A stretch of 32,000 nt of DNA. It comes from Chlamydiales bacterium. GTDB taxonomy: Bacteria; Chlamydiota; Chlamydiia; Chlamydiales; SM23-39. The DNA is taken from the NCBI GenBank assembly GCA_965261025.1, contig OZ253438.1:1260001-1292000 (forward strand), in the 5' to 3' direction. Positions 3,219 to 25,383 of this stretch are shown here, piece by piece. Numbering within the stretch: the first letter of the stretch is position 1; each line of letters starts with the position of its first letter. The position numbers and the translations under genes were made by a program. The notes beneath the pieces were generated by a model. The model had not been told where the DNA came from, searched no databases, and saw only the letters and a list, made by a program, of their open reading frames with translations.

Positions 3219-4501
3219 GATGAGTCCCTAGAAAAAAAGGTTAAGAAATCAAGCTGGGAAAGCTCTTTTTCTTGATTTTGCAGCATGTCCTTTAGTTGAA
3301 CTGTCTTTTGAGAAAGTTCTTTTTCTCCCAAAATAGCTACATAAGGGATCTTTTGAGAACTAGCGTAGGAGAGGGCTTGTTTTAACTTTTGAAAGCTAAA
3401 GTCCAAAGAACAAGAGATTTTTTTCCTGCGAAGCTGAGCAGCTAAACAGAGAGCCTGCCCCTTTGCCTTTTCTCCGAGGGGGACAAAAAATAGCGAGCAG
3501 GGAGGCTTTTGTTTGGGAAGGAGATCTTCTTGAACCAGTAGGGCCTGTAAAACCCTTTCTAGCCCGGTTCCAAAACCAATTCCTGGTAAAGATTCCCCCC
3601 CAAAAGAAGCGGTAAATCCATCATATCTTCCTCCTCCTCCTAAAGCATTCTGAGCGCCCAATTCTTTAGAGGTAACTTCAAAAACTGTATGGTTATAGTA
3701 GTCTAGCCCCCGCACAATTTTCGGGTTCACCGTATAGGCAATTCCCAGGGCATCTAACAGAGAAAGAAGCGTGTTAAAACGGCTTTTAGAAGGGTAATTT
3801 AAAAAGTCCAGAAAGGAGGGTGCCTTTTTCAGAAGGTGTTTATCTTCTTCTTCTTTAGAATCCAAAATCCGCAAAGGATTTTTTTCAAAACGGATTTTAC
3901 TTTGAGCAGAAAGACTAGTAAGATGAGGTCTTAGAAAATCTTGCAGAGCCTGTTTATAGGCCTGTTTAGAAGGAAGGTCTCCCACTGAATTCAGGTTCAC
4001 TTGGATATCTCGTAGCTGGAGTCTAGTGTAAAACTGTACCATCATATCGATAATTTCTGCATCTTGCTCTACTTCAAAAGTTCCCAAAACTTCTACTCCA
4101 AACTGGTGGTGTTGTCTATACCGACCTGCTTGAGGTCTTTCGTAGCGAAACATAGGTGCTATATAAAATAGTTTGTGAATCTTTTTCAGCGGGGCTAAAT
4201 TTTTTTCTACAAAGGCCCTCAATACAGAAGAAGTTCCTTCAGGTCTTAAAGCAAGAAGCCTTTTTTTGCGATCTTCAAAAAGGTACATCTCCTTACTGAC
4301 AATATCAGAGGTAGCTCCTACTCCTTTGAAGAACACTTCTGCCTTTTCAAAGACAGGGGTTCTAATCTCTTGAAATCCATAACCATAAGCAACAGAGCGA
4401 ATCACCTCTTCCAAATAAAGCCAGTAATTCATGCTTTGCCATTTCAAGGGATAGCCATAAGGGAGGATATCAAATAGTCCTTTAGGAATCGATTCTTTCA
4501 T
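3215..4501 (-). CDS. hisS: Histidyl-tRNA synthetase
   Basis: 428 aa. 'LRPEGTSSVLRAF', 'YIAPMFRYERPQAGRYRQHHQFGVEVLG', 'GGGRYDG' and 'GFGTGLERV' are the class IIa HisRS motifs. A 4-nt overlap couples it to aspS. Confidence 0.96.
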   Translation of the reverse strand: MKESIPKGLFDILPYGYPLKWQSMNYWLYLEEVIRSVAYGYGFQEIRTPVFEKAEVFFKGVGATSDIVSKEMYLFEDRKKRLLALRPEGTSSVLRAFVEKNLAPLKKIHKLFYIAPMFRYERPQAGRYRQHHQFGVEVLGTFEVEQDAEIIDMMVQFYTRLQLRDIQVNLNSVGDLPSKQAYKQALQDFLRPHLTSLSAQSKIRFEKNPLRILDSKEEEDKHLLKKAPSFLDFLNYPSKSRFNTLLSLLDALGIAYTVNPKIVRGLDYYNHTVFEVTSKELGAQNALGGGGRYDGFTASFGGESLPGIGFGTGLERVLQALLVQEDLLPKQKPPCSLFFVPLGEKAKGQALCLAAQLRRKKISCSLDFSFQKLKQALSYASSQKIPYVAILGEKELSQKTVQLKDMLQNQEKELSQLDFLTFFSRDSS

Positions 4502-4575
4502 AGTCTTTTTTCAAAAAAGCAGTGACGGGTTTATTTTGGCAGAACAGAAGAGGAAAGGGAAGGAGATTTTTCTTT

Positions 4576-5205
4576 CTAAGGGGTTTCTTGTTGTTTTAAA
4601 GTGGAAAAGAAAGAAAGAAAATCTCGTACTTGGGAAGACCAGTTTTCCAAGTGGCTTCCTTCTGGGTTTTTTACATATTCCTGGTGAAGCTTTTGTAAAA
4701 GGGCGATAAAGGGAAAAGGAAGCCATTTTTCTCCTGTGTATTCAGAAAGATAATAACCTAAAGGGTGCTCTTCTTCCTTAGGAAAGAGGTGAACCTGTTC
4801 AATAAAAGAGGTTAGCTTTTCATAAAGAATAGGAAATTTTTTAAAGTAAGGAACGTCTTCTAAAAATTGACGCCAAAGAAAAGAAAAATTTTGTAAAAGA
4901 GAGGAATCTTCATAGGTTTCTTCCCTTTTCATTTTCTGAAAACAGGCAAGGAGCTTTTGTAGGTTTTCTATTTTACTTTCCATAAGAAGATCTACGGAAG
5001 GTTTTTTGGGAGGAAAAAGAGAGCGAAACATTTTGGTAAAAAAGAGAAAAAAAGCGTTTTGAAAAAAAGTTTTCTCTCTTTGTTTTTTGGAAGAAGGAGC
5101 GGAAGATCTTTTAGGATCAAATCGTTCTGCCTCTATTTTTTCTACCCGGTAGTTTTCATAAGGATCTTTCGGTTTATTTCCTCCTGTTCCTGAGATGTTA
5201 GACAT
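4576..5205 (-). CDS. Hypothetical protein (no recognisable domain)
   Basis: 209-aa ORF occupying the gap between hisS and uhpC. It has a polar Gly/Lys/Pro-rich N-terminus, one Phe-rich hydrophobic stretch ('FFQNAFFLFFTKMF') and a helical-looking C-terminal half. The other frames here give only a 71-aa low-complexity ORF. Confidence 0.5.
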   Translation of the reverse strand: MSNISGTGGNKPKDPYENYRVEKIEAERFDPKRSSAPSSKKQREKTFFQNAFFLFFTKMFRSLFPPKKPSVDLLMESKIENLQKLLACFQKMKREETYEDSSLLQNFSFLWRQFLEDVPYFKKFPILYEKLTSFIEQVHLFPKEEEHPLGYYLSEYTGEKWLPFPFIALLQKLHQEYVKNPEGSHLENWSSQVRDFLSFFSTLKQQETP

Positions 5206-5399
5206 AAACGACTCTTTTTTTGTATAAAAGAACTATGTTTTGAGGTTAGGCTCCCTTTCTTTTTCTTGTAAGCAAAGGGAAGAAAAAACTCTAGAGAATC
5301 TCTCTTTTTTTCCAAAAATGCGGGATAATGGAAAGGAGTGAGTGGGATCTGTCAACTTAAGAACAAGAGCCTTTTTAAGAAGTAATTGGGGAAGTTTTT

Positions 5400-6743
5400 G
5401 TGAGGAAATTGTTTTGGCCGAATTTTTTAAAGCCTGCTCCTTTTCGTAAGGAAATACAAGATCCTGAAGTAGTAAAAAAATCCTACCGCTATTGGAGATT
5501 TCGGATTTTTTATGGGATGTACATCGGCTACGCCCTGTACTATTTTACTAGGAAGAGTTTTACTTTTGCTATTGCTTCTATGAGTCTTGATCTGGGTTTT
5601 TCAAAAGCTCAACTGGGAATCATTGCAAGTATTCTTTCTTTAACCTATGGGGTTAGTAAATTTATTAGTGGAATTTTAGGGGATAAATCAAATCCGCGTT
5701 ACTTTATGTCAATAGGTTTGATTTTGACAGGTATGTTTAATATTTTATTCGGATTTTCCTCTTCTCTTTACTGGTTTGCTCTATTTTGGGGGTTAAATGG
5801 TTGGTTTCAAGGATGGGGTTGGCCTGGTTGTGCTAAGCTTTTGACTCACTGGTATTCTCATTCAGAAAGAGGTACTTGGTGGGGTCTTTGGAATACCTCT
5901 CATAATCTGGGAGGGGCTTTAATTATTCTTTTAGCCACTTGGTGTACTCAAAAGTATGGGTGGCGCTATGCTATGTATGTTCCCGGAACGCTTTGTATCG
6001 GAGCCGGCTTTTTTTTGATGAATCGTCTTAGGGATACTCCTCAATCCTTAGGACTCCCTATTATTGAAAAATTTCGAGACGATTATCTCAACAAGGAAGA
6101 TAAAGAAAGCAAAGAAAGGTCTCAGCTTTCTGTGAAGAGGATATTGTGGGATTACGTTCTTTCCAATCGCTATATTTGGATTTTGGCTTTTTCTTACTTT
6201 TTTGTTTATGTGATTCGCACGGCATTAAATGATTGGAGCCTTCTTTTCTTTGTTGAAGCAAAAGGATATACGCAGTTTGAGGCGGGAAAATGTATCACTT
6301 TCTTCGAAATAGGCGGATTTTGTGGGGGGCTTGCTGCGGGGTGGTCTTCGGATAGAATTTTTCGAAGTAAGAGGAACCCCATCAACGTCTTATTTATTTT
6401 GGGTTCTTTAGCTTCTATTTTAGCGGTCTGGTTTGCAACAGGATTTCACTGGGCTTTGGATTATTTTTTCGTGTTTTCAGCCGGATTTTTTATCTTTGGG
6501 CCTCAGATGTTAATTGGAGTTGCTTGCGCGGAACTTTCCCATAAAAAAGCAGCGGCAACAGCTACAGGATTTGCGGGGACTTTTGGTTATCTAGGAGCGG
6601 CAGCAGCAGGGTATCCTTTAGGATATCTTACCACGCGGTTGGGTTGGGAAGGGTATTACATGGTTCTAGCCTTTTGTGCTGTTTGTGCTACTTTACTTTT
6701 AGTCCCTCTTTGGTCGGTAAAAACGCATCCTAGAAATCAGTAA
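5400..6743 (+). CDS. uhpC: Hexose-phosphate transporter/sensor UhpC-type MFS protein
   Basis: 447 aa with about 12 hydrophobic segments. 'YRYWRFRIFYGMYIGYALYYFTRKSF', 'GDKSNPRYFM' and 'GWFQGWGWPGCAKLLTHWYSHSERGTWWGLWNTSHNLGG' are typical of the organophosphate:Pi antiporter (UhpT/UhpC/GlpT) family. GTG start. Confidence 0.9.
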   Translation: MRKLFWPNFLKPAPFRKEIQDPEVVKKSYRYWRFRIFYGMYIGYALYYFTRKSFTFAIASMSLDLGFSKAQLGIIASILSLTYGVSKFISGILGDKSNPRYFMSIGLILTGMFNILFGFSSSLYWFALFWGLNGWFQGWGWPGCAKLLTHWYSHSERGTWWGLWNTSHNLGGALIILLATWCTQKYGWRYAMYVPGTLCIGAGFFLMNRLRDTPQSLGLPIIEKFRDDYLNKEDKESKERSQLSVKRILWDYVLSNRYIWILAFSYFFVYVIRTALNDWSLLFFVEAKGYTQFEAGKCITFFEIGGFCGGLAAGWSSDRIFRSKRNPINVLFILGSLASILAVWFATGFHWALDYFFVFSAGFFIFGPQMLIGVACAELSHKKAAATATGFAGTFGYLGAAAAGYPLGYLTTRLGWEGYYMVLAFCAVCATLLLVPLWSVKTHPRNQ

Positions 6744-6754
6744 AATCCGTTTGG

Positions 6755-6790
6755 CTCCTTCCTCGGAAGGGGAAAAATCGGTTGATTTTT
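6755..6790 (+). terminator. Candidate hairpins after uhpC
   Basis: GC-rich stem CTCCTTC/GAAGGGG (6755-6772, CTCG loop), then an AAAAATC-GGTT-GATTTTT hairpin ending in a T run (6773-6790). The geometry is not canonical, because the T run is separated from the GC stem. Confidence 0.3.
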
Positions 6791-6818
6791 TGCTTTGCTT
6801 GTCTCATCCTTGGCTCAA

Positions 6819-9800
6819 ATGGCTTGCTACGTTCCTTTACATGTTCACTCCCAGTATTCGATTTTAGACTCTACCGCCTCCATCGAAAAATTGATAAAGA
6901 AAGCAAAACAGTTTGATATCTCTTCGTTGGCTCTTACAGATAAAGGCAACTTATTTGGAGCTGTGGAGTTTTTCAAGACAGCAAAAAAAGAGAAGATCAG
7001 GCCTATCTTAGGCTGTGAGTTATGGGTTGCCTCTGAGGGAAGACATAAAAAAAAGAAAGAACCAGGGATTCCAGTGGCTTTTCCTCTTCTTTTTTTAGCC
7101 ATGAATGAAATAGGGTACCATAATCTTTGTAAGCTTTCTTCCTTGGGCTATTTAGAAGGGTTTTACTACTATCCTAGGGTAGATAAGGAGCTTTTACAAA
7201 AATATCAAGAAGGGCTTTTGTGTCTTACAGGATCAATGCTTTCTCCTTTTTCTTACTACATTCGGAGAAATAAGGAAGATCTTTTTGAAAAAGAGATGGC
7301 TTGGTATGAGGAGGTGTTTCAAGATAGGCTTTATCTTCTTCTTCAAAGGAGCTCTTTTGATACGGAAGAATTTTCGCAAGAAAGCTGGCTTTTGCAAAAA
7401 GCACAAGAATACAGAGCTGATTTAAAAAAGGTGGAAGCTACCCTCACAGCTTATGCAAAGAAAAAAAAGCTTCCCCTGGCAGCTAGTAATGAGATTCATT
7501 ATCTAGAAAAGCAGGATTGGAAAGCTCATGAGATTTTATTGAATGTCTCTTCTGGGGAAACGGTAGAAATCTGGGAAAGGGATTCTAAGGGAAATATCAA
7601 AAGCAGGTCTCCCAATCCTAAAAGGAAGGTACTTGCTTCTAAAGAATTTTACTTTAAAAGCCCGGAAGAAATGAGGGCTATTTTCCCCGACCTTCCTGAG
7701 GCTTTAGAAAACACCCAAAAAATAGCACAAAGATGTGAGTTAGAACTCGATTTTCAGACAAAGCACTATCCGGTTTTTTTGCCACCTTCTTTACAAAAAA
7801 GGGAGTACACCAAAGAGGAAAAGGAAGAAGAGACAGCTCAATATTTATATCAGCTTTGTAAAGAGGGAATTTCCGAAAGGTATACAAAAGAGCGCTTAGA
7901 AAAGGTAGCAGAAAAATATCCTGAAAAAGATCCCTTAACAGTAGTAGAAGAAAGGCTTGAGTTGGAGTTTTCTATTATTGCTTCTAAGGGAATGTGCGAC
8001 TATATCCTCATCGTATATGATTTTATCTTTTGGGCGAAAAGTCACCACATTCCTGTAGGACCAGGGAGAGGATCGGCTGCAGGATCCATTGTTGCCTATC
8101 TTTTGGGGATTACAGATATAGAACCTTTGCGATTTCATCTGTTTTTTGAGCGTTTTATTAATCCAGAAAGGATTTCTTATCCTGACATTGACGTAGATAT
8201 TTGTATGGAAAGACGTCTTGAAGTGATTGAGTATACCATAAGAAAGTATGGGAAGGAAAAAGTGGCTCAGATCATTACTTTTGGAAAAATGAAAGCAAAA
8301 ATGGCGATTAAAGATGTAGGTAGAGTGCTCAATGTTGCTTTATCCAAGGTAAACCAAATAGCCAAGCTGGTTCCGGATGACTTACATATCACCTTAGAAA
8401 AAGCATTGGAAGTAGATCCAGAGCTCAAAAATCTTTATGAGACAGATGAAGAAGCTCACAAAGTTATTGACATGGCAAAAAAAACAGAAGGATCCATCCG
8501 AAATACCAGTACGCATGCTGCTGGATTGATTATCTCTGAAAAACCCATTGTGGAACATATCCCTGTTTGTATTGCGAAAGATGCGGATATGATTGTTACT
8601 CAGTATTCCATGAAACCGGTAGAAGCAGTAGGGATGCTAAAAATTGATTTTCTTGGGTTAAAGACATTGAGTTGTATACAAAAGTGCGTCGATCAAATAG
8701 AGAAGAAAAGGCAGGAAAAAATCGATATTTCCAATCTATCCTTGGAAGATCCTAACGCTTTTGCTCTTTTGACAGAAGGAAAAACCCTCGGAGTCTTCCA
8801 GGTAGAGTCGGCTGGAATGCAAGATCTTTTAACTCATCTAAGAATTGATTCTTTCGAAGAAATTATCGCGGTAGGGGCTTTATATCGCCCCGGACCTATG
8901 GATATGATTCCTTCTTTTATCAATCGAAAACACAAAAAAGAAGAAATTCAAATAGATCATCCTTGGATGAAAGAGATCTTAGAAGAGACCTATGGGGTTA
9001 TGGTCTATCAAGAGCAAGTAATGCAAATAGCTAACAAATTGGCAGGATATTCCCTAGGAGAAGGGGATGTGTTAAGAAAAGCAATGGGAAAAAAAGACAG
9101 AGAAGAGATGATCCGCCAAAGAAAGAAATTTATAGCGGGGTGTTTAGGGAAAGGGATTGAGGAGAAAACCGCCGAGTTGATTTTTGAAAAGATTGAGAAA
9201 TTTGCCTCCTATGGCTTTAACAAGTCTCACGCGGCAGCATATGCTTATCTCACCTATATAACGGCCTACTTAAAAGCAAACTATCCCAGCGAATGGATGG
9301 CTGCCTTAATGACCTGTGATGTAGACGATCTTTCTAAAATAGCTAAATTTATCGGAGAAGCAAAAAGCCTAGGGATCGCTATTTTGCCGCCTGATGTAAA
9401 TGAGTCAGGTAAAGATTTTGTAGCGACGGAGAAAGGGATTCGTTTTGCGATGGCAGGGATCAAGGGAGTAGGGTTATCTGTAGTAGAGGCTATTTTAGAG
9501 GAGAGAAAAAAAAGGGGAGCTTTTTCTTCTTTAGAAGATTTTATAAAAAGGGTGGACTCTTCTAAGATAGGCAAAAAATCCATAGAGGTTTTAATTAGAG
9601 CTGGATCCTTTGATTTTATGAGTTGGAACCGGGATGAGATTCGAGTTTTTCTAGAAGAAAATTATGAGAGAGGAATCCAGCAAAGAAGAGAAGAAGAGGA
9701 AGGAGTTTTGCATCTGTTTTCTCTTTTAGAAGAAAAAAAAGAGGAAAAAATGACTCCTCCTGAAGTAAGAGAAAAAACTTCTTCTATAGACATTTTACAC

Positions 9801-10505
9801 CAAGAAAGGGAACTTATTGGTTTTTACCTTACTTCTCATCCTTTGAGTTTATATAAAGAGAAAATAGAAGAATTAGGATGCCTTTCCTTAAAAGATTTAG
9901 AAAAAAGAAAGAATCAATGGGTGAAAATAGCCTTTATTTTAGAAGAAGTACAATTTAAAATTAGCACAAAGAGTCAGAAGAAATTTGCTGTTTTAACGAT
10001 TAGTGATGGATTAGAAAAATATGAAGTACCTGTTTTTAGTGAGGTTTATGAAAATTCACTTCCCCTTTTGCAAGAGAATCAAATCCTAGTTGGACTTTTT
10101 TCTTTAGAAGAAAAAGAGCAGAAGAGGCGTCTTTCTTGCCGCTTCTTACAAAGTTTACAAGAGGGGGAAAAACAAAAGTTAGAAGAAGAGCTAAAAAGGC
10201 TTTCTTTTTTTCAAAAGGGAGGAAGAAATAAAGTGGAACGAAAAGAAAAAAAAGAGGATAAGTTATTGCGCCTTTTTCTGAATCTTTCCTCCATTCGGTT
10301 TTCTGACGTCTTAAACATGAAGGAACTTTTTCGAAAGTACGCGGGGAAGACTCCCTTAAAACTAGAATTTGAGGCAGAAAAAAAAGTAGTAGCTTTTCTC
10401 CATATTCAACCTGCTTGGGGAGTCGATTTAAGTCAGGAGTTTTTGTACGCCTTGCAGACCCTTCCTCATCTTCTGAGATACGAGCTCACGGCTTTGGAGA
10501 ACTAA
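6819..10505 (+). CDS. dnaE: DNA polymerase III alpha subunit
   Basis: Includes the PHP domain 'YVPLHVHSQYSILDS', 'GPGRGSAAGSIVAYLLGIT', 'ISYPDIDVDI', 'STHAAGLII', 'LKIDFLGLKTL' and 'FNKSHAAAYAYLTYITAYLK'. The ORF track starts at TTG 6795. ATG 6819 ('MACYVPLHVHS') fits the usual N-terminus better. Confidence 0.96.
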   Translation: MACYVPLHVHSQYSILDSTASIEKLIKKAKQFDISSLALTDKGNLFGAVEFFKTAKKEKIRPILGCELWVASEGRHKKKKEPGIPVAFPLLFLAMNEIGYHNLCKLSSLGYLEGFYYYPRVDKELLQKYQEGLLCLTGSMLSPFSYYIRRNKEDLFEKEMAWYEEVFQDRLYLLLQRSSFDTEEFSQESWLLQKAQEYRADLKKVEATLTAYAKKKKLPLAASNEIHYLEKQDWKAHEILLNVSSGETVEIWERDSKGNIKSRSPNPKRKVLASKEFYFKSPEEMRAIFPDLPEALENTQKIAQRCELELDFQTKHYPVFLPPSLQKREYTKEEKEEETAQYLYQLCKEGISERYTKERLEKVAEKYPEKDPLTVVEERLELEFSIIASKGMCDYILIVYDFIFWAKSHHIPVGPGRGSAAGSIVAYLLGITDIEPLRFHLFFERFINPERISYPDIDVDICMERRLEVIEYTIRKYGKEKVAQIITFGKMKAKMAIKDVGRVLNVALSKVNQIAKLVPDDLHITLEKALEVDPELKNLYETDEEAHKVIDMAKKTEGSIRNTSTHAAGLIISEKPIVEHIPVCIAKDADMIVTQYSMKPVEAVGMLKIDFLGLKTLSCIQKCVDQIEKKRQEKIDISNLSLEDPNAFALLTEGKTLGVFQVESAGMQDLLTHLRIDSFEEIIAVGALYRPGPMDMIPSFINRKHKKEEIQIDHPWMKEILEETYGVMVYQEQVMQIANKLAGYSLGEGDVLRKAMGKKDREEMIRQRKKFIAGCLGKGIEEKTAELIFEKIEKFASYGFNKSHAAAYAYLTYITAYLKANYPSEWMAALMTCDVDDLSKIAKFIGEAKSLGIAILPPDVNESGKDFVATEKGIRFAMAGIKGVGLSVVEAILEERKKRGAFSSLEDFIKRVDSSKIGKKSIEVLIRAGSFDFMSWNRDEIRVFLEENYERGIQQRREEEEGVLHLFSLLEEKKEEKMTPPEVREKTSSIDILHQERELIGFYLTSHPLSLYKEKIEELGCLSLKDLEKRKNQWVKIAFILEEVQFKISTKSQKKFAVLTISDGLEKYEVPVFSEVYENSLPLLQENQILVGLFSLEEKEQKRRLSCRFLQSLQEGEKQKLEEELKRLSFFQKGGRNKVERKEKKEDKLLRLFLNLSSIRFSDVLNMKELFRKYAGKTPLKLEFEAEKKVVAFLHIQPAWGVDLSQEFLYALQTLPHLLRYELTALEN

Positions 10506-17327: not shown

Positions 17328-17357
17328 TTGACTAAATCTTTTATATAGCATTAAAGT
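17328..17357 (+). promoter_or_regulatory. Candidate sigma-70-type promoter for the 17398-18934 cassette
   Basis: TTGACT (17328-17333), an 18-nt spacer, then TAAAGT (17352-17357). It lies about 40 nt upstream of ATG 17398, at the end of a very AT-rich spacer. Pattern match only. Confidence 0.25.
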
Positions 17358-17397: not shown

Positions 17398-17769
17398 ATG
17401 AAGAGGTTATTTTTTGTTTTTGTTTGTTTAGTGCTCTGTATCTTTGCAAGTGAGGAAAGTCTGACTAAAGAAGGGAATTTCTTTTCTGATGTCTATGTTT
17501 CAGAAAAAAAGGAAACGGGTATCTGCAAGGAGAAAAACCTTTACCTAGCTAGAAGAGGGTATAGAGGAGGAAGAAGGGGAAAAAGAATGGGTCCTAGTTC
17601 TAAAAGGAAGGACTTAAGCCAACTAAATGAGGGAAATAAAAGAGGGTCAGAACAGAAGAAAAACCAAAACCAAAGTAACGAAGAAAAGCATCAAAGAGGG
17701 GGAGATAGAAAGAACGATCAGAATAGGCGGGCGGACGAAAAGAATAATGAACGGCATAGGAAAAATTAG
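17398..17769 (+). CDS. Exported, highly basic low-complexity protein (hypothetical)
   Basis: 123 aa with a Sec-type signal peptide 'MKRLFFVFVCLVLCIFA|SEE'. The remainder is Arg/Lys/Asn/Gln/Glu-rich ('RRGYRGGRRGKRMGPSSKRKD...QKKNQNQSNEEKHQRGGDRKNDQNRRADEKNNERHRKN'). It ends 5 nt before the next start. Low-complexity sequence makes the coding call less secure. Confidence 0.5.
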   Translation: MKRLFFVFVCLVLCIFASEESLTKEGNFFSDVYVSEKKETGICKEKNLYLARRGYRGGRRGKRMGPSSKRKDLSQLNEGNKRGSEQKKNQNQSNEEKHQRGGDRKNDQNRRADEKNNERHRKN

Positions 17770-17774
17770 GCCTT

Positions 17775-18356
17775 ATGGAAGTTGGGGTAGTTCTAGGTGT
17801 CAAAAAAAATAAGCGAATTTGTATTATAGCAGATTCTCTGACAATATCGGGAGGATCTAGAAAACAAACGGCAGATCATGTGGTTAATCATGATAAAATC
17901 ATTCGGTGTGGTTCTTCTTATATAGCGACAGCAGGTTGTAGCTCTTGGCATTCCGCTCTCAGGAGCTACTTTTCTCAGAAAAAAAACAAAAATTTTTCCC
18001 TAACAACTAAAGAAGAGATTTTTGGGGAGCTTCTTAAAATGCATTATGTTCTGAAAAAAGAATATTTTTTGGTTCCTTATGAAAAAGAAGAAGATGAATT
18101 TGAGTCTTCCCGATTTGAATCGTTAATTGTTAATCCTTATGGTATTTTCAAAACTTATAAGTTGAGATCTGTACAGCAATTTATCCATTTTGCAGCAATC
18201 GGGAGAGGGGCTGCTTATGCCTTGGGAGCGTTGCATGTTCTATATGATCAGTTAGATTCAGCAGAGGAGATTGCCAAAAAAGCTTTGGATATAGTTGTTG
18301 AGTTTGATGACTCTTCCTCTCTTCCTGCGACATTTCACGTAGTAGAGGAAAAATGA
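17775..18356 (+). CDS. HslV/proteasome-beta-like Ntn-hydrolase fold protein, predicted catalytically inactive paralogue
   Basis: 193 aa. It aligns by eye to E. coli HslV at 'KRICIIADS' (vs 'HVVIAGDG'), 'FAAIGRGAAYALGAL' (vs 'IAIGSGGPYAQAAARAL') and 'SAEEIAKKALDIVVEFDDSSSLPATFHVVE' (vs '[29 protein letters not shown]'). The N-terminus is MEVGVV with no Thr. The GSG serine is replaced (GRG, nt 18195-18209). Confidence 0.7.
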   Translation: MEVGVVLGVKKNKRICIIADSLTISGGSRKQTADHVVNHDKIIRCGSSYIATAGCSSWHSALRSYFSQKKNKNFSLTTKEEIFGELLKMHYVLKKEYFLVPYEKEEDEFESSRFESLIVNPYGIFKTYKLRSVQQFIHFAAIGRGAAYALGALHVLYDQLDSAEEIAKKALDIVVEFDDSSSLPATFHVVEEK

Positions 18357-18934
18357 CAACGATAGCTGCCGTAAAGAAAGGCAAACGGTTGTGTATTGCC
18401 TCTGATTCATTGACGCTATTTGGGTCTAGAAAAGAACTGAGTGGACAACATGTTTATGGGGAAGGAAAATTTATTCGGGTGGGCTCAAACTACATTGGGA
18501 TGGCAGGGCATCCCTCTTGGGAGTTGATTTTAAAGCACTATTTTGCCAGACAAAAGAGGGTTTTTCCATGGAAGACAGCGGAGCAGATTTTTGAGATTTT
18601 TCGTAAAATGCATAGTGATTTGAAGCGTATTTATTATCTTAGCTCTGACAGATCTGATTTCTCTCCTTTTGAAGACTCTGCTTTTGAGTTATTGATTGTG
18701 AATCCCTACGGTATCTTCGAAGTGGAATATTCAAGATTAGTGAGGCAATATTCAAAATTTTCTGCAATCGGTTCAGGGGAATACTACGCCTTAGGAGCTA
18801 TGAAAGCCGTTTATGATGAGCTGAATAATCCTGGCGAAATTGTTGGGTTAGGAATAAAAGCAGCAGCCCAGTTCGATCGAGGGACGGAGCTTCCCTTGCA
18901 TATTTGCTGGATTGATTCAAAAGCGTACAGTTAG
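18353..18934 (+). CDS. HslV/proteasome-beta-like Ntn hydrolase, predicted active paralogue
   Basis: 193 aa. The N-terminus 'MTTIAAVKKGKRLCIASDS' parallels HslV 'MTTIVSVRRNGHVVIAGDG': Thr directly after Met, and Asp at mature position 17. It has the candidate catalytic Lys in 'GEGKFIRVG' and 'FSAIGSGEYYALGAMKAV' (GSG, nt 18764-18778). ATGA overlap with the upstream paralogue. Confidence 0.75.
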   Translation: MTTIAAVKKGKRLCIASDSLTLFGSRKELSGQHVYGEGKFIRVGSNYIGMAGHPSWELILKHYFARQKRVFPWKTAEQIFEIFRKMHSDLKRIYYLSSDRSDFSPFEDSAFELLIVNPYGIFEVEYSRLVRQYSKFSAIGSGEYYALGAMKAVYDELNNPGEIVGLGIKAAAQFDRGTELPLHICWIDSKAYS

Positions 18935-18969: not shown

Positions 18970-19803
18970 TCAATTAACCCCGTCTTTGTCTTGGCAAATC
19001 AGATCCTCTTGGTAGATCCATCGGGCAATGGAATCGAGCGTAATGGCAGCTGTGTTAGGATAGCAGTTTGGGTCTATCCCTTGGCCTGCAAGATCAAAGA
19101 GGAACTCTTCGGGCAGAGTAGCTTTTATGATAGTAAATTGGTAAGCGCAGAAAGGTTGATCTGAGATAAAAAGTGCCTTACAAGGCTTACAGGAAAGTTC
19201 AAGCCAGGCATTAAGAGTATCTTCCGTATTAGGGCGTTTTAAGGAAGAGTCTTTTATTTTCATGGGCGCCACAACAAAAACAACGGGTAAAGAACGCATT
19301 TCTTCGGGGATTTGCGTATCCTTCCAGAGGATGAAAGCCGCTTCTGATTCCTTGCTGCAGCGATCTGTCAATGTATCTACACGCTCATCCAAGGGTCTAT
19401 CACCTGTTAGCCATACGATTTCCTTAAAGCGTACCCCTTCGTTCCAAAGTTGTTTTAGATAGTCAAGCCGCACTTGCATCCGAGAAGTAGTGGCTCCAAG
19501 AATCAGAGCTTTGTCGTAGACCTTAGAAACAGGTTTCCAAGGAGTGTATAATCCTTGCCTGGTAGCCCAGTCTATTACAAAAGCTTTTTGATCTAGGGAA
19601 AGCTCGGCAATTTCCCATCGCTCTTGATTCGATTTGCGTAGCCAGCGTTTTTGTGTTTCGAGGATAACATCAGCTTCTGGGGGGATATCCAAGGCCAGGC
19701 TAAGTTCAGAAAGAGCTGCTGGATCCATTTTCCGATCTTGAAGGGGTAGGGCAAAGGATGAACTACAAAAAAAGGCAGTAAATAGAAAAAGCCACCGTTT
19801 CAT
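18970..19803 (-). CDS. Exported DUF218 (YdcF/ElyC/SanA-like) domain protein
   Basis: Signal peptide 'MKRWLFLFTAFFCSSSFA|LP' (ATG 19803 preferred over 19845). 'ALILGATTSRMQVRLDYLKQLWNEGVRFKEIVWLTGDRPL', 'SEAAFI', 'RPNTEDTLNAW' and 'ALFISDQPFCAYQ' follow the order of the DUF218 pattern (VLGg..R...a..L.....ii.sGg / sEA / s.nT.eNa / lVTs.fH..Ra). GC is visibly higher than in the neighbouring genes. Confidence 0.45.
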   Translation of the reverse strand: MKRWLFLFTAFFCSSSFALPLQDRKMDPAALSELSLALDIPPEADVILETQKRWLRKSNQERWEIAELSLDQKAFVIDWATRQGLYTPWKPVSKVYDKALILGATTSRMQVRLDYLKQLWNEGVRFKEIVWLTGDRPLDERVDTLTDRCSKESEAAFILWKDTQIPEEMRSLPVVFVVAPMKIKDSSLKRPNTEDTLNAWLELSCKPCKALFISDQPFCAYQFTIIKATLPEEFLFDLAGQGIDPNCYPNTAAITLDSIARWIYQEDLICQDKDGVN

Positions 19804-20020
19804 AAAAACCCCAAGATAAAACATGCAAAAGCAGCACCTTACCATAGTTTTCTATAAATTACCTATAGATATTTTTTCAAAATGCTAGAGATTATAGATC
19901 CGGATCAGCTGTTAGCATCACCTGAATTTTTGAAAAATCCTCTTTTTCCTTTCCTTATTCTATAGGTTATTGAAGTTTAAGGGTTCTTGTGTAAACTGGG
20001 GGTAGATGGATGGTTACATT

Positions 20021-20491
20021 ATGAAGAGAGTATGGGTTTTTTTAGGACGCTTTTTTTTGAGTCTTATTTTTCTAACAGCGGCAATTCAAAAAGGGATAGA
20101 TTGGCATAGGACAGAATCAGAGGTGGTTCAGGCTCTTTCAAGATGGCATACCCACTTTTCTGAGGGAGCTTTTTTTAAAGAAACCGCTACCTGGGCTCCT
20201 TTTTTATTAGTAATAGCTATTTTTTTAGAGTTCGTAGGAGCTCTTCTTGTTTTATTGAATATCCGAATGAAGCTGGGAGCTTTTTTCTTAGTGATTTTTT
20301 TTATTCCTACTACGTTACTTTTTTACCCATTTTGGTTTTTTGAAGGGGCAGAAAGAGATGAGCAGATTGTGATGTTTTTAAAAAATCTTGCTATATTGGG
20401 AGGGCTATTTCTTCTTTTAGGTAAGGAGGCTTTTAAGAACAAAACAGGGATCTCTAACGGGGAAAGTTCTGATTTACCAGGGAATGATTGA
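20021..20491 (+). CDS. DoxX-family integral membrane protein
   Basis: About 156 aa with four hydrophobic segments. 'LGRFFLSLIFLTAAIQKG' and 'FLKNLAILGGLFLLLG' are typical DoxX N- and C-terminal signatures. ATG 20021 ('MKRVWVF') is preferred to 20006. Confidence 0.6.
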   Translation: MKRVWVFLGRFFLSLIFLTAAIQKGIDWHRTESEVVQALSRWHTHFSEGAFFKETATWAPFLLVIAIFLEFVGALLVLLNIRMKLGAFFLVIFFIPTTLLFYPFWFFEGAERDEQIVMFLKNLAILGGLFLLLGKEAFKNKTGISNGESSDLPGND

Positions 20492-22194
20492 AGCTTTTGG
20501 AAATTTTTTTTTTTCTTGTCTCTCTCCTTCTGATTTCTTTAGGGCAGCCCCTTTTTTCCAATATTTGTAGTTTCTTGGCAAGTTTTTTGGGCTATGCTCT
20601 TTTCTGGCGTTCCCTTTTTTCTTTTTCTCCCAAAAAAGCTTTTTGGGTAGCTACTTTTTGGTTTTTTCTTGTACAGCTTGTACAGCTTTCTTGGATGATC
20701 TCCTTTGAGTACCAAGGCTTTTATATTCTTTTCGTCTATTTTTTCGTCTCTTTTGCTATAGGATTGCAGTTTGGTTTTTTGAGTTTTTTTATTAGAAGGT
20801 TTTTTACAGAACAGGGAAAAAGGCCCCTTCTTTTTTTTCTAGCTACCGCTTCTCTTTGGGTTTTTTTAGAACTAATGCGTCTTTTTATAGTTTGTGGATT
20901 TTCCTGGAATCCGGTAGGGATTTCTTTGGCTTTTCACCCTATTGGGATGCAAGCGGCTGCTTTGTGGGGGGTATATGGGCTAAGTTTTTGGGTAATTTTT
21001 ACCAACTTGTGGGGATTAAAAGCTCTTTTTCACAGAGAAAGAAGAACCTGTATTTTTTGGGGAATTTGTCTTGTATTCCCTTATCTATTTGGATTTTTTC
21101 ATATAGCTTTTCATGAGCAAAAAGCAAAGAAAGAAAAAGCTTTTTCCGCTCTTTTGATACAAACTGCCTTAAGACCTGAGGAAAAATCCCCTCACTTTTC
21201 TTGGGAAAGTTTTGTTTCTCCTTATGAACAATGGAGAAGGATTTTTAAAGAGGTAGGAAAACAAGAACAAAAAGCTGATTTGGTAGTTCTTCCGGAAGTA
21301 GCACTTCCCTTTGGAGCATCTCGTGCTGTGTACCCTTTAGAGGAGATAGAGGTTCTCTGGAGGGAAGTTTTTCCCTTTGAAATGAAAACGGCTTTCCCAG
21401 AAAACCTTTTTGCCTATACAGAAGAAAGGGAAGGAAAAATTTTTGTAAGTAATGTTTTTATTTTACAAGTTCTAGCCAATGCTTTTCAGCAGCAGTGGGT
21501 AGCGGGGCTAGAGACCTATGATCCTTCTCTGAAAAAAGGGTTTAATGCGGCTTTTTACTTCAGGCCAGGTCAGGCAAGCTATGCCAGATATGAAAAAAGG
21601 GTGTTAGTTCCCATAGGAGAGTATATTCCCTATAACTGGCTTAAAAGCTGGGCAAAGATATTTGGAATTCATACCTCTTTTTCCGTTGGGAAAGAAGCGA
21701 AGGTTTTTTCTGAAAAAAATCCTTTTTCTATTTCTATTTGCTATGAAGAGACCTTCCCTTATCTGATCCGAGAAGGAAGAAAAAAAGGGGCAAAGCTTTT
21801 TATAAATCTTTCCAATGATGTGTGGTTTCCTAAAACTACTCTAGCTTTACAACACTATTTGCATGGAATGTTAAGAGCTATAGAAAATGGAGCTTCTTGC
21901 CTAAGAGCTACCAATACAGGAATTACAGCAGCAGTAGATCCTTTAGGAAGAGAGGTTGCCTCTTTCTTAAAAGAAAACTCTCAAAGAGAAGAGACGTTTG
22001 GGGGTCTTTTTGTTTCTTTTCCTCTGTATTCTTTTTCTACTTTGTATACTCTCTGGGGAGAGCTTCCCCTGCTTTTAGGAGGGGTTTTTTTTCTGGGTCA
22101 ATTCGTCTTTAGATTGAGAAATAGGGCTTGCTCAAAAAAAGGAAATTGGCTTACCTTCTCTAGAGATTTAAAAGAGGGAAATGGCCTGTTTTGA
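20488..22194 (+). CDS. lnt: Apolipoprotein N-acyltransferase
   Basis: 568 aa with a polytopic N-terminal half followed by a CN-hydrolase domain. The catalytic triad context is present: 'LVVLPEVALP' (Glu), 'YEKRVLVPIGEYIP' (Lys) and 'SISICYEETF' (Cys). TTG start overlaps the DoxX stop (TTGA). Confidence 0.88.
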   Translation: MKLLEIFFFLVSLLLISLGQPLFSNICSFLASFLGYALFWRSLFSFSPKKAFWVATFWFFLVQLVQLSWMISFEYQGFYILFVYFFVSFAIGLQFGFLSFFIRRFFTEQGKRPLLFFLATASLWVFLELMRLFIVCGFSWNPVGISLAFHPIGMQAAALWGVYGLSFWVIFTNLWGLKALFHRERRTCIFWGICLVFPYLFGFFHIAFHEQKAKKEKAFSALLIQTALRPEEKSPHFSWESFVSPYEQWRRIFKEVGKQEQKADLVVLPEVALPFGASRAVYPLEEIEVLWREVFPFEMKTAFPENLFAYTEEREGKIFVSNVFILQVLANAFQQQWVAGLETYDPSLKKGFNAAFYFRPGQASYARYEKRVLVPIGEYIPYNWLKSWAKIFGIHTSFSVGKEAKVFSEKNPFSISICYEETFPYLIREGRKKGAKLFINLSNDVWFPKTTLALQHYLHGMLRAIENGASCLRATNTGITAAVDPLGREVASFLKENSQREETFGGLFVSFPLYSFSTLYTLWGELPLLLGGVFFLGQFVFRLRNRACSKKGNWLTFSRDLKEGNGLF

Positions 22195-23111
22195 CGGTTC
22201 TTCCGAATAACAGAAAAGTACAAGAGAAGTGTCTTTCTACTTCTACGAGAAAAGGAAGAGCTCCTTCGTTTTATTCCACATTGAGTAAAGAGGTGTTTCA
22301 TGAAGGAGAAGGGCTTTTTACTGGCATCAAAGTACAGATGAGGCTTTTGCCTGCTCCTTTGGGGACAGGGATCGTTTTTCAAAGGCTTGATTTACCCAAG
22401 GCGCCTTTGATTCCGGCCCGTCTTGCCTATGTGCAGAAGACTCCAAGGTGTACCATTTTGGGAAAAGAGGGTTTTTTTGTGCAAACAGTGGAACATCTCC
22501 TTTCTGCTTTATATTCCTTAGAAATAGATAATGTGATCATCCAGTTAGATGCTCCTGAAGTTCCTATTGATGACGGAAGTTCAAAGGTTTTTGTGGATTT
22601 GATCGAGGAGGCGAAAGTCTCTTTTTTCTCTGAAGAAAAAAAGCTTTTTTCTTTGAAGGAGATGGTCAGTTTTTCTTCAGGAGATACTCACTTGATTGCT
22701 TTGCCGGATGAAACATTTCGAATTAGCTATACCATGGACTACCCGCAGTCTTCTTTTATAGGTTCTCAGTACTTATCTTTGCCTATTAGCAAGGAAAGTT
22801 ATAAAAAAGAGGTGGCTTCTTCTCGCACTTTTTCTTTGTATGAGGAGCTACAGGAAATGTTAGAAAAGGGGCTGTTACAAGGGGCTGGGTTAAAAAATGG
22901 GGTGGTAATAAAGGAAGATGCTGTTTTAAATCCTGAAGGACTTCGTTACAAAAATGAAATGGTTCGGCATAAAATTTTAGATCTTTTAGGGGATTTATCC
23001 TTGCTGGGAATCTCTTTTGTAGCGCATATTATCGCTATCCGTTCAGGTCACTTTTCCAACGTTGCTTTTGCTAGGGCTCTAGAGCGTTATTTGCAAGGAG
23101 GAATTTCCTAA
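22191..23111 (+). CDS. lpxC: UDP-3-O-acyl-N-acetylglucosamine deacetylase
   Basis: 'TVEHLLSAL', 'VRHKILDLLGDLSLLG' and 'IRSGHFSNVAFARAL' match the LpxC zinc-binding and catalytic His/Asp motifs. The exact start is uncertain: TTG 22191 is the only plausible in-frame initiator upstream of the conserved core. Confidence 0.9.
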   Translation: MTVLPNNRKVQEKCLSTSTRKGRAPSFYSTLSKEVFHEGEGLFTGIKVQMRLLPAPLGTGIVFQRLDLPKAPLIPARLAYVQKTPRCTILGKEGFFVQTVEHLLSALYSLEIDNVIIQLDAPEVPIDDGSSKVFVDLIEEAKVSFFSEEKKLFSLKEMVSFSSGDTHLIALPDETFRISYTMDYPQSSFIGSQYLSLPISKESYKKEVASSRTFSLYEELQEMLEKGLLQGAGLKNGVVIKEDAVLNPEGLRYKNEMVRHKILDLLGDLSLLGISFVAHIIAIRSGHFSNVAFARALERYLQGGIS

Positions 23112-23114
23112 AAG

Positions 23115-23579
23115 ATGGGACAAGAAAAGAAGCAATCTTTGGTTTTTGGTCCTAGGGAATTGTCTGATATTCTTCCCCATCGCTATCCTTTTTTATTAGT
23201 AGATAAGATTATCCATCTTGATTTAGAAAAAGAGAGGATTATAGGGCAGAAAAACGTGACGATGAATGAAGCGTTTTTTCAGGGGCATTTCCCGGGAGCA
23301 CCTATTATGCCAGGAGTTCTTATTATAGAGGCTTTAGCGCAAACAGGGGGAGTGTTAGTTCACCAGAAAGGGTACAAAACAAAGATAGCAGTGCTTCTTA
23401 ACATAGCAAGAGCTAAGTTTCGCAGGCCTGTTCATCCTGGTGACACTCTACATCTTCATGCAGAAGCATTGCATGTAAGTAAGATGGGAGGGAAAATGAA
23501 AGCGAGTGCTTTGGTAGAAGAGAGATTAGTAGTAGAAGCAGAAATGAGTTTTGCTTTAGTAGAAAAGAGTCAATTATAG
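23115..23579 (+). CDS. fabZ: 3-hydroxyacyl-ACP dehydratase
   Basis: 154 aa. 'LPHRYPFLLVDKI' and 'FFQGHFPGAPIMPGVLIIEALAQTGG' are hot-dog fold FabZ signatures. Confidence 0.95.
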   Translation: MGQEKKQSLVFGPRELSDILPHRYPFLLVDKIIHLDLEKERIIGQKNVTMNEAFFQGHFPGAPIMPGVLIIEALAQTGGVLVHQKGYKTKIAVLLNIARAKFRRPVHPGDTLHLHAEALHVSKMGGKMKASALVEERLVVEAEMSFALVEKSQL

Positions 23580-23602
23580 AAAATTTAAAAAGCGGTTTTT
23601 TC

Positions 23603-24442
23603 ATGTCTTACATAGATCCAAAGGCATTTGTAGAAGAGGGAGCAGAAATAGGTATTGGTGTAACCATAGAGGCGTTTGCTGTGGTAAAAAAGCATGTTGT
23701 TCTCAAAGATGGAGTAACTATCAAATCGCATGCATATATTGATGGATATACGACGATAGGAGAAAACACTACAATTTGGCCTGGGGCAAGTGTGGGAACT
23801 AAGACACAAGATCTTAAATTTCGGGGGGAAAAAACTTACGTAATCATAGGGAAAAACTGTGAAATCCGGGAGTTTGTTACCATCAATTCTTCTTGTCATG
23901 AAGGCTCTGAAGTTCATGTAGGGGATGGGTGTCTTATCATGGCTTATTGTCATATAGCACATAACTGCCATTTGGGTAAAAAAGTGATTATGTCCAATGG
24001 AGCCATGTTAGCAGGTCACGTTACCATTGAAGATTATGCTATTATTGGTGGAATGACTCCTATTCATCAACATTGTAAGGTGGGCTCTTATGCCATGGTA
24101 GGTGGTTTTAGTAGGATCTCCAAAGATATCCCTCCCTATACCTTAGGAACGGGGGTTCCTTATAAGTTGGGTGGATTGAATCTGGTGGGTTTAAAAAGGC
24201 ATAACTTTTCTCTTTCGGTAAGGCAGAAGTTAAGTAAGGCGTTTCGTTTTACCTATAGAAAGGGGCTTCATTTACAAGAGGCTATTTCTTACATAGAGTC
24301 GGAAGTGGATCTGATTCCCGAGGTAAAGCATTGGATAGATTTTTGTAGATCTACTAAGAGGGGTTTAATCTGCTTAGAAGGCGTGACAAGGCAAGGGGTT
24401 TCTCCTGATTTTGAGGAGCTTTTAGAAGAAGAAATGGTGTAG
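23603..24442 (+). CDS. lpxA: Acyl-ACP--UDP-N-acetylglucosamine O-acyltransferase
   Basis: 279 aa with left-handed beta-helix hexapeptide repeats throughout ('IGIGVTIEAFAVV', 'IGENTTIWPGASVG', 'VGDGCLIMAYCHIAHNCHLG'). The C-terminal helical domain includes 'GLNLVGLKRHNFS'. Confidence 0.93.
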   Translation: MSYIDPKAFVEEGAEIGIGVTIEAFAVVKKHVVLKDGVTIKSHAYIDGYTTIGENTTIWPGASVGTKTQDLKFRGEKTYVIIGKNCEIREFVTINSSCHEGSEVHVGDGCLIMAYCHIAHNCHLGKKVIMSNGAMLAGHVTIEDYAIIGGMTPIHQHCKVGSYAMVGGFSRISKDIPPYTLGTGVPYKLGGLNLVGLKRHNFSLSVRQKLSKAFRFTYRKGLHLQEAISYIESEVDLIPEVKHWIDFCRSTKRGLICLEGVTRQGVSPDFEELLEEEMV

Positions 24443-24450
24443 CTTTTTTT

Positions 24451-25383
24451 ATGAAGCTGGTTTTTTTTGGGACTCCTTATTTTGCTTCTCGTACGCTGCG
24501 GTATCTTCTCTCTTCTCCTTGCCAAGTAATTGCTGTAGTAACTAGGCCCGATAAACCGAAGGGGCGGTTTTTAAAAGAACGCTTTCCCCCTGTGAAAGCG
24601 TTTTGTCAAGAAAGTTTTTCCTCTGTTCCGGTTTTTCAGCCTCAGAAGGCCTCTGATCCTATTTTTCTAGACCAATTGAGAAAATTAAAAGCCGATTATT
24701 TTGTAGTGGTAGGCTATGGGCAAATCCTTCGAAAGGAACTCTTAAAAATCCCGCTAAAGGGCTGTATCAATGTACATGCTTCTCTTCTTCCTAAGTATCG
24801 GGGAGCAGATCCTATGAGGAGAGCCCTTTTAGAGGGAGAAAAAAAAACAGGGATTACCATCATGGATATGGTAGAGGAGTTAGATGCAGGGGATATGTAT
24901 GCTCAAGAAGAAATAAAAATTCCTTTAGAGATGAACTTTTCTTGTCTTCAAGAAAAACTTCTAGATATAGGGGCCCCTCTTTTAGTAAAAACCCTTCTAA
25001 AAATACAAAAAGGCAAGGGTGTTGCGAAAAAGCAAGATAGCGCCTTTTCTAGTTATGCCAAGAAGATTGCTCCTCAAGAAAGGGAGATTTCTTGGAATTT
25101 TCCCGCGGAGAAAATTCATAATCAAATTCGCGCTTTCTCTTCTTCTCCTGGGGCCTGGGTTTGGACTTTCTTCGGGGGAGAGAAGAAAAAGGTGAAGATC
25201 TTGGCTTCTAGGGTCTCACAACAGGAGGGAGTGCCTTCCCAAATTTTAGAAAAATCGAAAAAAAACTTACGAGTAGCTTGTCAAAAAAAATCTATAGAGA
25301 TCTTAACGATTCAGCTAGAGGGAAAAAAAGAAATGCCTATAGCTTCCTTCTTAGCAGGGGTAAAAAAAGAATTTTATTTTTAA
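24451..25383 (+). CDS. fmt: Methionyl-tRNA formyltransferase
   Basis: 310 aa. 'MKLVFFGTPYFA', 'VVTRPDKPKGR', 'INVHASLLPKYRGADP' and 'TGITIMDMVEELDAGDM'. Confidence 0.93.
   Translation: MKLVFFGTPYFASRTLRYLLSSPCQVIAVVTRPDKPKGRFLKERFPPVKAFCQESFSSVPVFQPQKASDPIFLDQLRKLKADYFVVVGYGQILRKELLKIPLKGCINVHASLLPKYRGADPMRRALLEGEKKTGITIMDMVEELDAGDMYAQEEIKIPLEMNFSCLQEKLLDIGAPLLVKTLLKIQKGKGVAKKQDSAFSSYAKKIAPQEREISWNFPAEKIHNQIRAFSSSPGAWVWTFFGGEKKKVKILASRVSQQEGVPSQILEKSKKNLRVACQKKSIEILTIQLEGKKEMPIASFLAGVKKEFYF

Follow-up and report, generated by a model that had tools for sequence, protein, structure and literature searches.

What would a chlamydial cell do with two proteasome-like proteins encoded side by side, one of which has lost the catalytic nucleophile and neither of which has an unfoldase nearby? 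This question is raised by two genes in a 32,000-nucleotide stretch of a Chlamydiales bacterium genome (GenBank assembly GCA_965261025.1, contig OZ253438.1, positions 1,260,001 to 1,292,000 of the forward strand), here called the window, whose own numbering is used throughout. BPH-A (A; 17775..18356, plus strand) and BPH-B (B; 18353..18934, plus strand) are open reading frames (ORFs) of 193 aa each, beginning MEVGVVLGVKK and MTTIAAVKK. A first-pass annotation had described them as an orphan HslV-like pair, one member apparently active and the other apparently dead. Our analysis places both in the BPH family and links them to a third gene, immediately upstream, that encodes a polybasic tail. 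The BPH family itself is known; a conserved pair of a dead and an active BPH protein with a linked polybasic tail appears to be new. We propose, with a probability of roughly 0.5, that the tail gene, A and B form a three-gene operon for a heteromeric, ATP-independent BPH barrel that would act on the tail, where we infer both the assembly and the substrate.

Family assignment of the paired proteins

The ORF list and the raw sequence confirmed two ORFs of equal length joined by an ATGA overlap at 18353..18356 (plus strand), in which the ATG of B (18353-18355) lies on the TGA of A (18354-18356), the arrangement of translationally coupled genes. Aligned by BLASTP, A and B shared 77 identities over 180 positions (43%, E 4e-49), which is far beyond chance and agrees with the paralogy, at one third or more identity, proposed earlier.

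The family to which they belong was less well predicted. In a phmmer search of PDB sequences, both proteins matched BPH structures over their full length (A, 5ovs at E 2e-34 and 5ovu at E 1e-29; B, 5ovs at E 3e-32 and 5ovu at E 1e-26), with about 35-40% identity to the solved BPH proteins. HslV was matched by A only, at E ~0.09 and over the C-terminal third, and B had no HslV match, so that the alignment to E. coli HslV noted earlier was reduced to a weak resemblance; the BPH matches were 25-30 orders of magnitude better. Against the HslV equivalog models TIGR03692 and NF003964, A and B scored 16-18.5 bits, compared to cut-offs of 157.75 and 137. Pfam PF00227 was marginal (21 and 17.5 bits for the two proteins, cut-off 22.4). 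AlphaFold2 monomer models built on family alignments had mean confidence values (pLDDT) of 83 for A and 81 for B, and in Foldseek searches with these models the top six matches were all BPH chains (TM-score 0.78-0.88 for A, 0.79-0.89 for B), followed by HslV at about 0.55-0.73 and then by 20S beta subunits. By sequence and by predicted structure, then, A and B are BPH-family proteins. The proteasome-family Ntn-hydrolase fold suggested at first reading is supported by both kinds of comparison, with BPH as its closest form, while HslV identity was rejected with family-model scores more than 100 bits under the cut-offs.

It is accordingly very improbable that a plain hslV duplication, with HslU encoded elsewhere, explains the locus. 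Some source annotations do label homologues of the pair 'HslV', in line with the weak C-terminal similarity, but BPH was far better than HslV both by sequence and by model (TM-score ~0.85 compared to ~0.65), and the long pore loop of both proteins is a BPH feature that HslV does not have. The neighbourhood points the same way: hslU was not seen in any of the 13 loci that we examined, window included, and with this the explanation is effectively refuted.

The literature on BPH puts the absence of an unfoldase in a different light. The family was defined bioinformatically in 2008 (Valas & Bourne, PMC3235984), and structures from Thiobacillus denitrificans (5OVS/5OVT) and Cupriavidus metallidurans (5OVU) were solved in 2018 (Fuchs et al., PMC5777263). 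BPH forms a 7+7 double ring of 14 identical subunits, and its long and highly acidic pore loop was proposed to serve in substrate recognition; no unfoldase partner has turned up, neither in genomes nor in pull-downs (PMC5777263). Its active site reacts with epoxomicin and yet is inert on standard substrates, and its physiological substrates were left open by its authors (PMC5777263). No AAA+ or HslU domain was found by Pfam among the 29 larger ORFs of the window, which upholds the earlier observation of no unfoldase nearby, and no AAA+ gene stood beside the pair in related loci. Because the proteins are BPH, this absence is the published norm for the family and not the anomaly that the word 'orphan' had implied. 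Anbu was likewise disfavoured, as the first-pass annotation had stated from the neighbouring genes: Pfam found no ATP-grasp, alpha-E or transglutaminase genes of the Anbu type in the window, no Anbu chain was among the PDB sequence matches of A or B, and neither protein runs past the BPH core, so there is no Anbu-like C-terminal H5 extension. A plasmid search returned only the known Ralstonia megaplasmid BPH.

Catalytic residues and pore charge in the two paralogues

B has, as far as its sequence can tell, a complete active site. A Thr comes right after the initiator Met and, in precursor numbering, Asp18, Lys39, Gly52 and G140-S-G142 follow; in the alignment these residues correspond to Thr1, Asp17, Lys37, Gly50 and Ser139 of T. 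denitrificans BPH. The N-terminal Thr should be exposable by Met removal, with no propeptide. In A of the window, Gly4 stands at the Thr1 position after a three-residue MEV extension, and the first 15 residues contain no Thr, Ser or Cys. The Asp, Lys and Gly50 equivalents are kept and G-R-G replaces G-S-G, which places Arg at Ser139. An alternative start of A that would expose a Thr was considered and rejected: the ORF opens at the first start past a stop and holds no in-frame candidate. The division into a catalytically complete downstream copy and a nucleophile-less upstream copy, first read by eye, thus withstood closer comparison.

The same division was found far beyond the window. A search of 5.8 billion proteins returned one A-type and one B-type set, in which the A-type proteins nearly all begin MG[IV][IV]LAVKK and all B-type proteins begin MTT. 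Sources, where named, were metagenome-assembled genomes (MAGs) of Chlamydiales, Parachlamydiales, Waddliaceae and Rhabdochlamydiaceae and one MAG labelled Verrucomicrobia; none of the source-named homologues came from Chlamydiaceae, at whose genomes no search was aimed. Contigs were resolved into 13 distinct chlamydia-type loci, counting the window, and A was followed in tandem by B in the window and 11 others (L001, L002, L003, L004/5, L006, L007, L008/9, L013/14, L015/16, L017/18 and L022). The 4-nt ATGA overlap was present in 10 of the 11 A/B pairs tested from other loci. Beyond the ORF immediately upstream of A, the flanking genes vary among loci. The A-then-B pair is therefore conserved in environmental Chlamydiota and related metagenomes.

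An alignment of 258 full-length family members, with E. coli HslV as an outgroup for rooting only, placed the A-type proteins in a clade of 56 tips. Position 1 was Gly in 54 of its 54 full-length tips; most A relatives read MGI or MGV and a few read MGT, with the Thr one register off. In the B clade, the MTT start and Gly50 were both present in 54 of 54 tips. Asp17 and Lys37 were retained in the two clades alike. At the Gly50 (oxyanion-hole) equivalent, the A clade had Asp in 48%, with Ser, Ala, Thr, Gly and other residues making up the rest, compared to 100% Gly in the B clade, and this free variation in A fits what a loss of catalysis predicts.

Such losses could also be the marks of a decaying, functionless duplicate beside a B that alone matters: Thr1 is gone, position 50 is unconstrained, and A of the window has GRG and an N-terminal extension in addition. 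Conservation makes this explanation hardly credible. A was intact in every locus, and across nine genomes the mean pairwise identity of A was 68.3% compared to 59.5% for B, with A above B in 35 of the 36 genome pairs. Over 29 A sequences, 26 columns were invariant. The Gly at position 1 is itself 96% conserved, and one locus (L010-L012) retains A with no B adjacent. We rejected A as a pseudogene because it is better conserved than B; from its sequence, A is a BPH-family pseudo-enzyme under strong selection, rather than a canonical BPH or a decaying copy.

The start of A differed in detail in two loci. In L001 (1354..1365) it reads MDM-G, where a second ATG could restore the MG start, and in the window (17775..17786) it reads MEV-G, with GTT as the codon that matches the second ATG of L001. 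The GRG of the window copy stands where the family has GSG or GTG. Taken together with the tail of the window, which is the most diverged of its set (see below), the extension and the GRG suggest relaxed constraint on the module in the window lineage.

The second property divided between the paralogues is the charge of the pore loop, which in BPH lines the entrance of the barrel and is about 11 residues long in both copies. In the window it is VPYEKEEDEFE in A, which is acidic, and SSDRSDFSPFE in B, which is long and non-acidic. Mean net charge of the loop was -5.6 in A, -4.3 in A-like proteins that have kept Thr1, -3.5 in other BPH, -2.0 in the B-like partners of that Thr1 lineage and -0.6 in B. 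The acidic entrance of the family is thus retained and exaggerated in the dead A and gone from the active B. A charge swap at one and the same position is also fixed between the paralogues, with K126 in A and E123 in B at a site that is most often Gly in other BPH, and a second fixed difference sets Q134 of A against R131 of B. Both are already present in the lineage with Thr1 in both copies, and they could be the signature of a hetero-interface or of a substrate channel.

This lineage bears on the order of events, for which we used a simple distance tree. In the neighbour-joining tree, five A-like proteins with an MTT start were sister to the Gly1 clade and eight B-like proteins were sister to the B clade, and the Thr1-keeping A-like genes stand in tandem with B-like genes in the same order in L003 (205..1337) and L006 (1240..2398). 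With Thr1 present in both copies of this sister lineage, gene duplication and tandem order can be placed before the loss of the nucleophile. The Thr1 lineage of L003 and L006 already has the upstream tail ORF and looks like an extant intermediate from before inactivation. A close non-chlamydial relative, L019, has Ser1 and is a single gene without a paralogue.

The upstream polybasic tail and the surrounding genes

The ORF upstream of A in the window (17398..17769, plus strand) encodes 123 aa and stops 5 nt before A. Its N-terminus resembles a signal peptide (MKRLFFVFVCLVLCIFA), and its C-terminus is a hydrophilic, strongly basic tail, encoded at about 17626..17766 and ending in ...NEGNKRGSEQKKNQNQSNEEKHQRGGDRKNDQNRRADEKNNERHRKN. 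The first-pass annotation had counted this exported basic protein among unrelated neighbours; it turned out to be the gene most consistently linked to the pair in related loci. An ORF that ends 3-23 nt before A bears a conserved polybasic tail in 8 of the 13 loci, with a remnant in one more (L004/5). The tail has the consensus GGHxKNxRxS[NT]x[ED]KH[EDQ]xG[DR]ARRQKEQ followed by a K-rich end, is 42-58 residues long with a net charge of +5 to +14, and contains nearly no hydrophobic residues. It is carried by small signal-peptide proteins in the window, L001 (971..1348), L006 (839..1225), L010-L012 (L011, 195..467) and L013/14 (L013, 4660..4995), by a partial ORF in L003 (3..191), and by the extreme C-terminus of RHS proteins in L002 (427..3933) and L007 (2872..5997). 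In these last two loci it ends RHS/YD proteins of 1,000-1,200 aa, where it is preceded by the DPxGL core and a hydrophobic stretch and so takes the place that a polymorphic-toxin domain would have, and A starts 3 nt past the stop. A readthrough fusion of the tail ORF with A was considered and rejected, as L002 and L007 alone have the two in frame and the remaining six loci do not.

A hidden Markov model (HMM) of the tail, built without the copies from the window and L001, was run on the six-frame ORFs of all loci (3,987). Its matches were confined to ORFs directly upstream of A: L002, L003, L006, L007 and L010-14 at E 2e-20 to 3e-17, the remnant in L004/5 at E 3e-6, L001 at E 1.4e-3 and the window at E 0.37. 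The motif occurred nowhere else in about 408,000 six-frame residues. Against the 5.8 billion proteins the tail profile gave seven matches at E <= 0.01; one was the tail protein of L011, and two more came from proteins whose longest contigs equal in length those of A- or B-type proteins. The tail ORF itself had no match in Pfam, NCBIfam, PDB or PADLOC. The closest relative of the window ORF was that of L001, with a near-identical tail, and this counterpart, together with position and architecture, is what ties the window tail to the set.

Basic tails were found on BPH proteins elsewhere as well. Of 134 non-chlamydial BPH representatives, 19 have a basic C-terminal extension (at least 12 residues, net charge at least +4), among them P0237, P0249, P0207, P0137, P0181, P0205 and P0212; MRRTSKTKSKKKKRTTRKKQKLS is an example. 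No chlamydial A or B has such an extension. Judged from these sequences, basic tails accompany BPH barrels repeatedly: outside the chlamydiae they look like tails in cis on single-copy BPH, and here the tail is supplied in trans. Longer BPH homologues were also considered as informative fusions and set aside: they yielded only basic extensions of low complexity and, besides these, probable gene-call artefacts. One of the basic-extended BPH proteins had a sub-threshold match to the chlamydial histone-like HC2 family. We propose that the upstream tail ORF is a third member of the module, as partner or as substrate, and regard the tail as a candidate for a client of the BPH family.

The tail on RHS proteins leads to another explanation, in which the locus is a polymorphic-toxin cassette, with the tail as toxin domain and the BPH pair as proteolytic immunity, mobile between RHS and stand-alone secreted forms. 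In L002 and L007 the tail does form the extreme C-terminus of an RHS/YD protein with A directly behind it, and a further protein, P0288, has the same RHS-type tail C-terminus. RHS/YD-repeat genes lie less than 10 kb from the pair in 5 of the 13 loci (L002, L004/5, L007, L013/14 and L017/18), and in L017/18 the genes ahead of the pair are one RHS gene and two small ones that look immunity-like, which recalls an orphan immunity array. The likeness to known RHS toxin/immunity cassettes (Zhang et al. 2012, PMC3482391) is accordingly that, in some loci, the tail is an RHS C-terminal module and the pair takes the place of the immunity gene. Known immunity proteins, however, are small binders and not two-subunit protease barrels, and the disordered basic peptide, of 45-60 residues, matches no recognised toxin domain in Pfam or NCBIfam. 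Most loci, window included, have a small signal-peptide protein; the copy in the window sits amid housekeeping genes, with no RHS gene in the 32 kb by a Pfam scan of the larger ORFs, and the RHS-fused examples may derive from one clade. We consider a toxin cassette an unlikely explanation of the module.

Around the module in the window, the Pfam scan found housekeeping genes only: aspS, hisS, an MFS transporter, dnaE, a TPR/YfiO-type lipoprotein, a PBP5-type carboxypeptidase, ksgA, a SurA-like gene and rsmB before the module, and doxX, lnt, lpxC, fabZ, lpxA, fmt and ribosomal protein genes after it. Two of these runs, aspS-hisS-MFS transporter-dnaE (1455..10505) and lnt-lpxC-fabZ-lpxA-fmt (20488..25383), presumably resemble CT542-545 and CT530-534, respectively, of Chlamydia trachomatis, a likeness that points to a chlamydial lineage with a small genome and fits the contig size of 1.42 Mb. 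A possible operon promoter is a sigma-70-like match, TTGACT-18-TAAAGT (17328..17357, plus strand), within the 236-nt gap that precedes the tail ORF; it is a consensus match only, and promoter and terminator scans of the region gave no more sites than shuffled expectation. Rfam found no RNA families in the window. Convergent with B lies a gene for 291 aa (18970..19845, minus strand) whose N-terminus resembles a signal peptide. It had no Pfam match at E <= 0.01, which leaves the DUF218 label given to it earlier unverified, and it is not kept beside the pair in other loci.

A proposed heteromeric barrel and its relation to known proteases

In the mechanism that we propose, the coupled message would yield A and B in equal amounts, and the two would co-assemble into one BPH-type barrel. 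The most natural form would be a ring of seven A stacked on a ring of seven B, like ClpP1P2 or the alpha7-beta7 half of a proteasome, as two subunits cannot alternate around a ring of seven. The contribution of A would be an entrance of strongly negative charge together with a pseudo-active site able to bind without cutting, and B would supply the Thr1 sites. A barrel without an unfoldase could take only disordered chains, which the upstream polybasic tail fits; the client would be this tail, captured electrostatically, without unfolding, and then cleaved. Since exported proteins and RHS toxins are what carry the tail, the role may be to dispose of or neutralise copies of the exported protein or toxin that are retained in the cytoplasm, in other words immunity or quality control. 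Indirect support for co-assembly comes from the strict pairing, the conserved overlap, the stronger constraint on A and the complementary specialisation of the two proteins.

The same proteins might also work apart, B as an ordinary homo-tetradecameric protease and A as an acidic cage of its own or a decoy that sequesters the tail, in the manner of an immunity protein or chaperone. The locus L010-L012 speaks for this, having the tail ORF and A with no adjoining B. Published BPH complexes are homo-oligomeric, A retains Asp17, Lys37 and the acidic loop, consistent with a binding site that does not cleave, and in L002 and L007 A stands exactly at the place of the RHS immunity gene. The overlap in 10 of 11 pairs, however, implies equimolar co-production, the loss of the acidic loop from B makes most sense if A supplies that loop, and each paralogue is fixed for its side of the K126/E123 charge swap. 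Separate assembly is the most serious of the alternatives, though still unlikely in our view.

Several points weigh against a heteromeric barrel that cleaves the tail. First, in L010/11/12 the Gly1-type A (L010, 6001..6573; L011, 491..1063; L012, 421..993) is followed by a PNPOx-family gene, so that A may work without B. Second, since seven-fold rings cannot alternate A and B, the stoichiometry given above is a guess. Third, a tail ORF is absent beside the pair in four loci (L008/9, L015/16, L017/18 and L022), and the tail of the window is the most diverged member of its set, reaching only E 0.37 against the tail profile. Fourth, a Met of B presumably aligns, in 20S numbering, to position 45 of the S1 pocket, which suggests a hydrophobic S1 as in other BPH; as the tails are nearly without hydrophobic residues, cleavage within them is not obviously favoured. 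Lastly, the tail proteins have signal peptides and A and B do not, and an encounter could take place only before export.

Compared to published BPH, the chlamydial proteins have the same fold, a B without propeptide and with the set Thr1/Asp17/Lys37/Gly50/Ser139, a long pore loop in both copies that is acidic in A, and no unfoldase gene nearby. They differ in being two obligately paired paralogues, one without a nucleophile, where the published form is a single gene and a homo-14-mer, and in having the acidic loop on one subunit and the active site on the other. The genomic context differs too, with a polybasic-tail ORF or an RHS gene here and argG, pyruvate dehydrogenase genes or hsp33 in the published cases. 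The 2008 survey found the active-site residues universally conserved with one exception (PMC3235984), and Fuchs et al. described all active-site residues as conserved in BPH, the complexes as homo-oligomeric and every BPH outside Betaproteobacteria as having Ser1 (PMC5777263), unlike the Thr1 of chlamydial B. In the searched literature on chlamydial or heteromeric BPH, key BPH papers included, we found no Chlamydiota, no paralogous BPH pair, no nucleophile-less BPH and no linked basic-tail gene, in agreement with the initial impression that no two-subunit system of this kind had been described in chlamydiae.

Other self-compartmentalising proteases offer partial parallels. HslV (ClpQ), from which the literature derives BPH, shares the proteasome-like Ntn-hydrolase type, a Thr1 after Met and the double-ring architecture; it has hexameric rings with a pore region that is short and basic, and it requires HslU, whereas A and B have no linked hslU. 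In the 20S proteasome, with its alpha and beta rings and the inactive eukaryotic subunits beta3, 4, 6 and 7, duplicated subunits have likewise lost the nucleophile and stay essential for the complex, and gating or entrance falls to one subunit and catalysis to another, as we propose for A and B. The duplication of A and B is independent, much more recent and within the BPH branch; the alpha-type N-terminal H0 helix is missing from A, which keeps Asp17 and Lys37, and the A/B assembly is itself part of the proposal. ClpP1P2 of Mycobacterium, Listeria and Chlamydia brings two paralogues together in one 7+7 barrel, each as a homo-heptameric ring of its own. ClpP is a serine protease of unrelated fold, however, in which both rings usually have catalytic triads, and it works with AAA+ partners. 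That Chlamydiota arrived on their own, within the BPH branch, at an alpha/beta division like that of the proteasome, with a dead, hyper-acidic entrance subunit and a catalytic subunit in one ATP-independent barrel and, as dedicated client, a polybasic C-terminal degron or toxin tail encoded upstream on secreted proteins or RHS toxins, is a larger claim that we put forward tentatively and with some doubt.

For the BPH family, for which structures but no substrate, partner or function have been reported, the chlamydial loci offer a candidate client that is linked by genome position. They also divide acidic loop and active site naturally between two polypeptides, and both leads, client and division, are testable. 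The locus shows how a homomeric proteasome-like ring may gain a non-catalytic subunit, with a Thr1-keeping intermediate still extant, in parallel with the origin of alpha and beta subunits in the proteasome and of the inactive beta subunits. For Chlamydiota, it adds a self-compartmentalising protease family to the usual list of ClpP, Lon, FtsH, HtrA, CPAF and Tsp. If the larger claim of a re-invented alpha/beta division with the tail as client is true, the tail would be the first natural substrate, and its removal the first biological role, for any BPH, and the module would be the first immunity or quality-control system to act through a proteasome-like cage.

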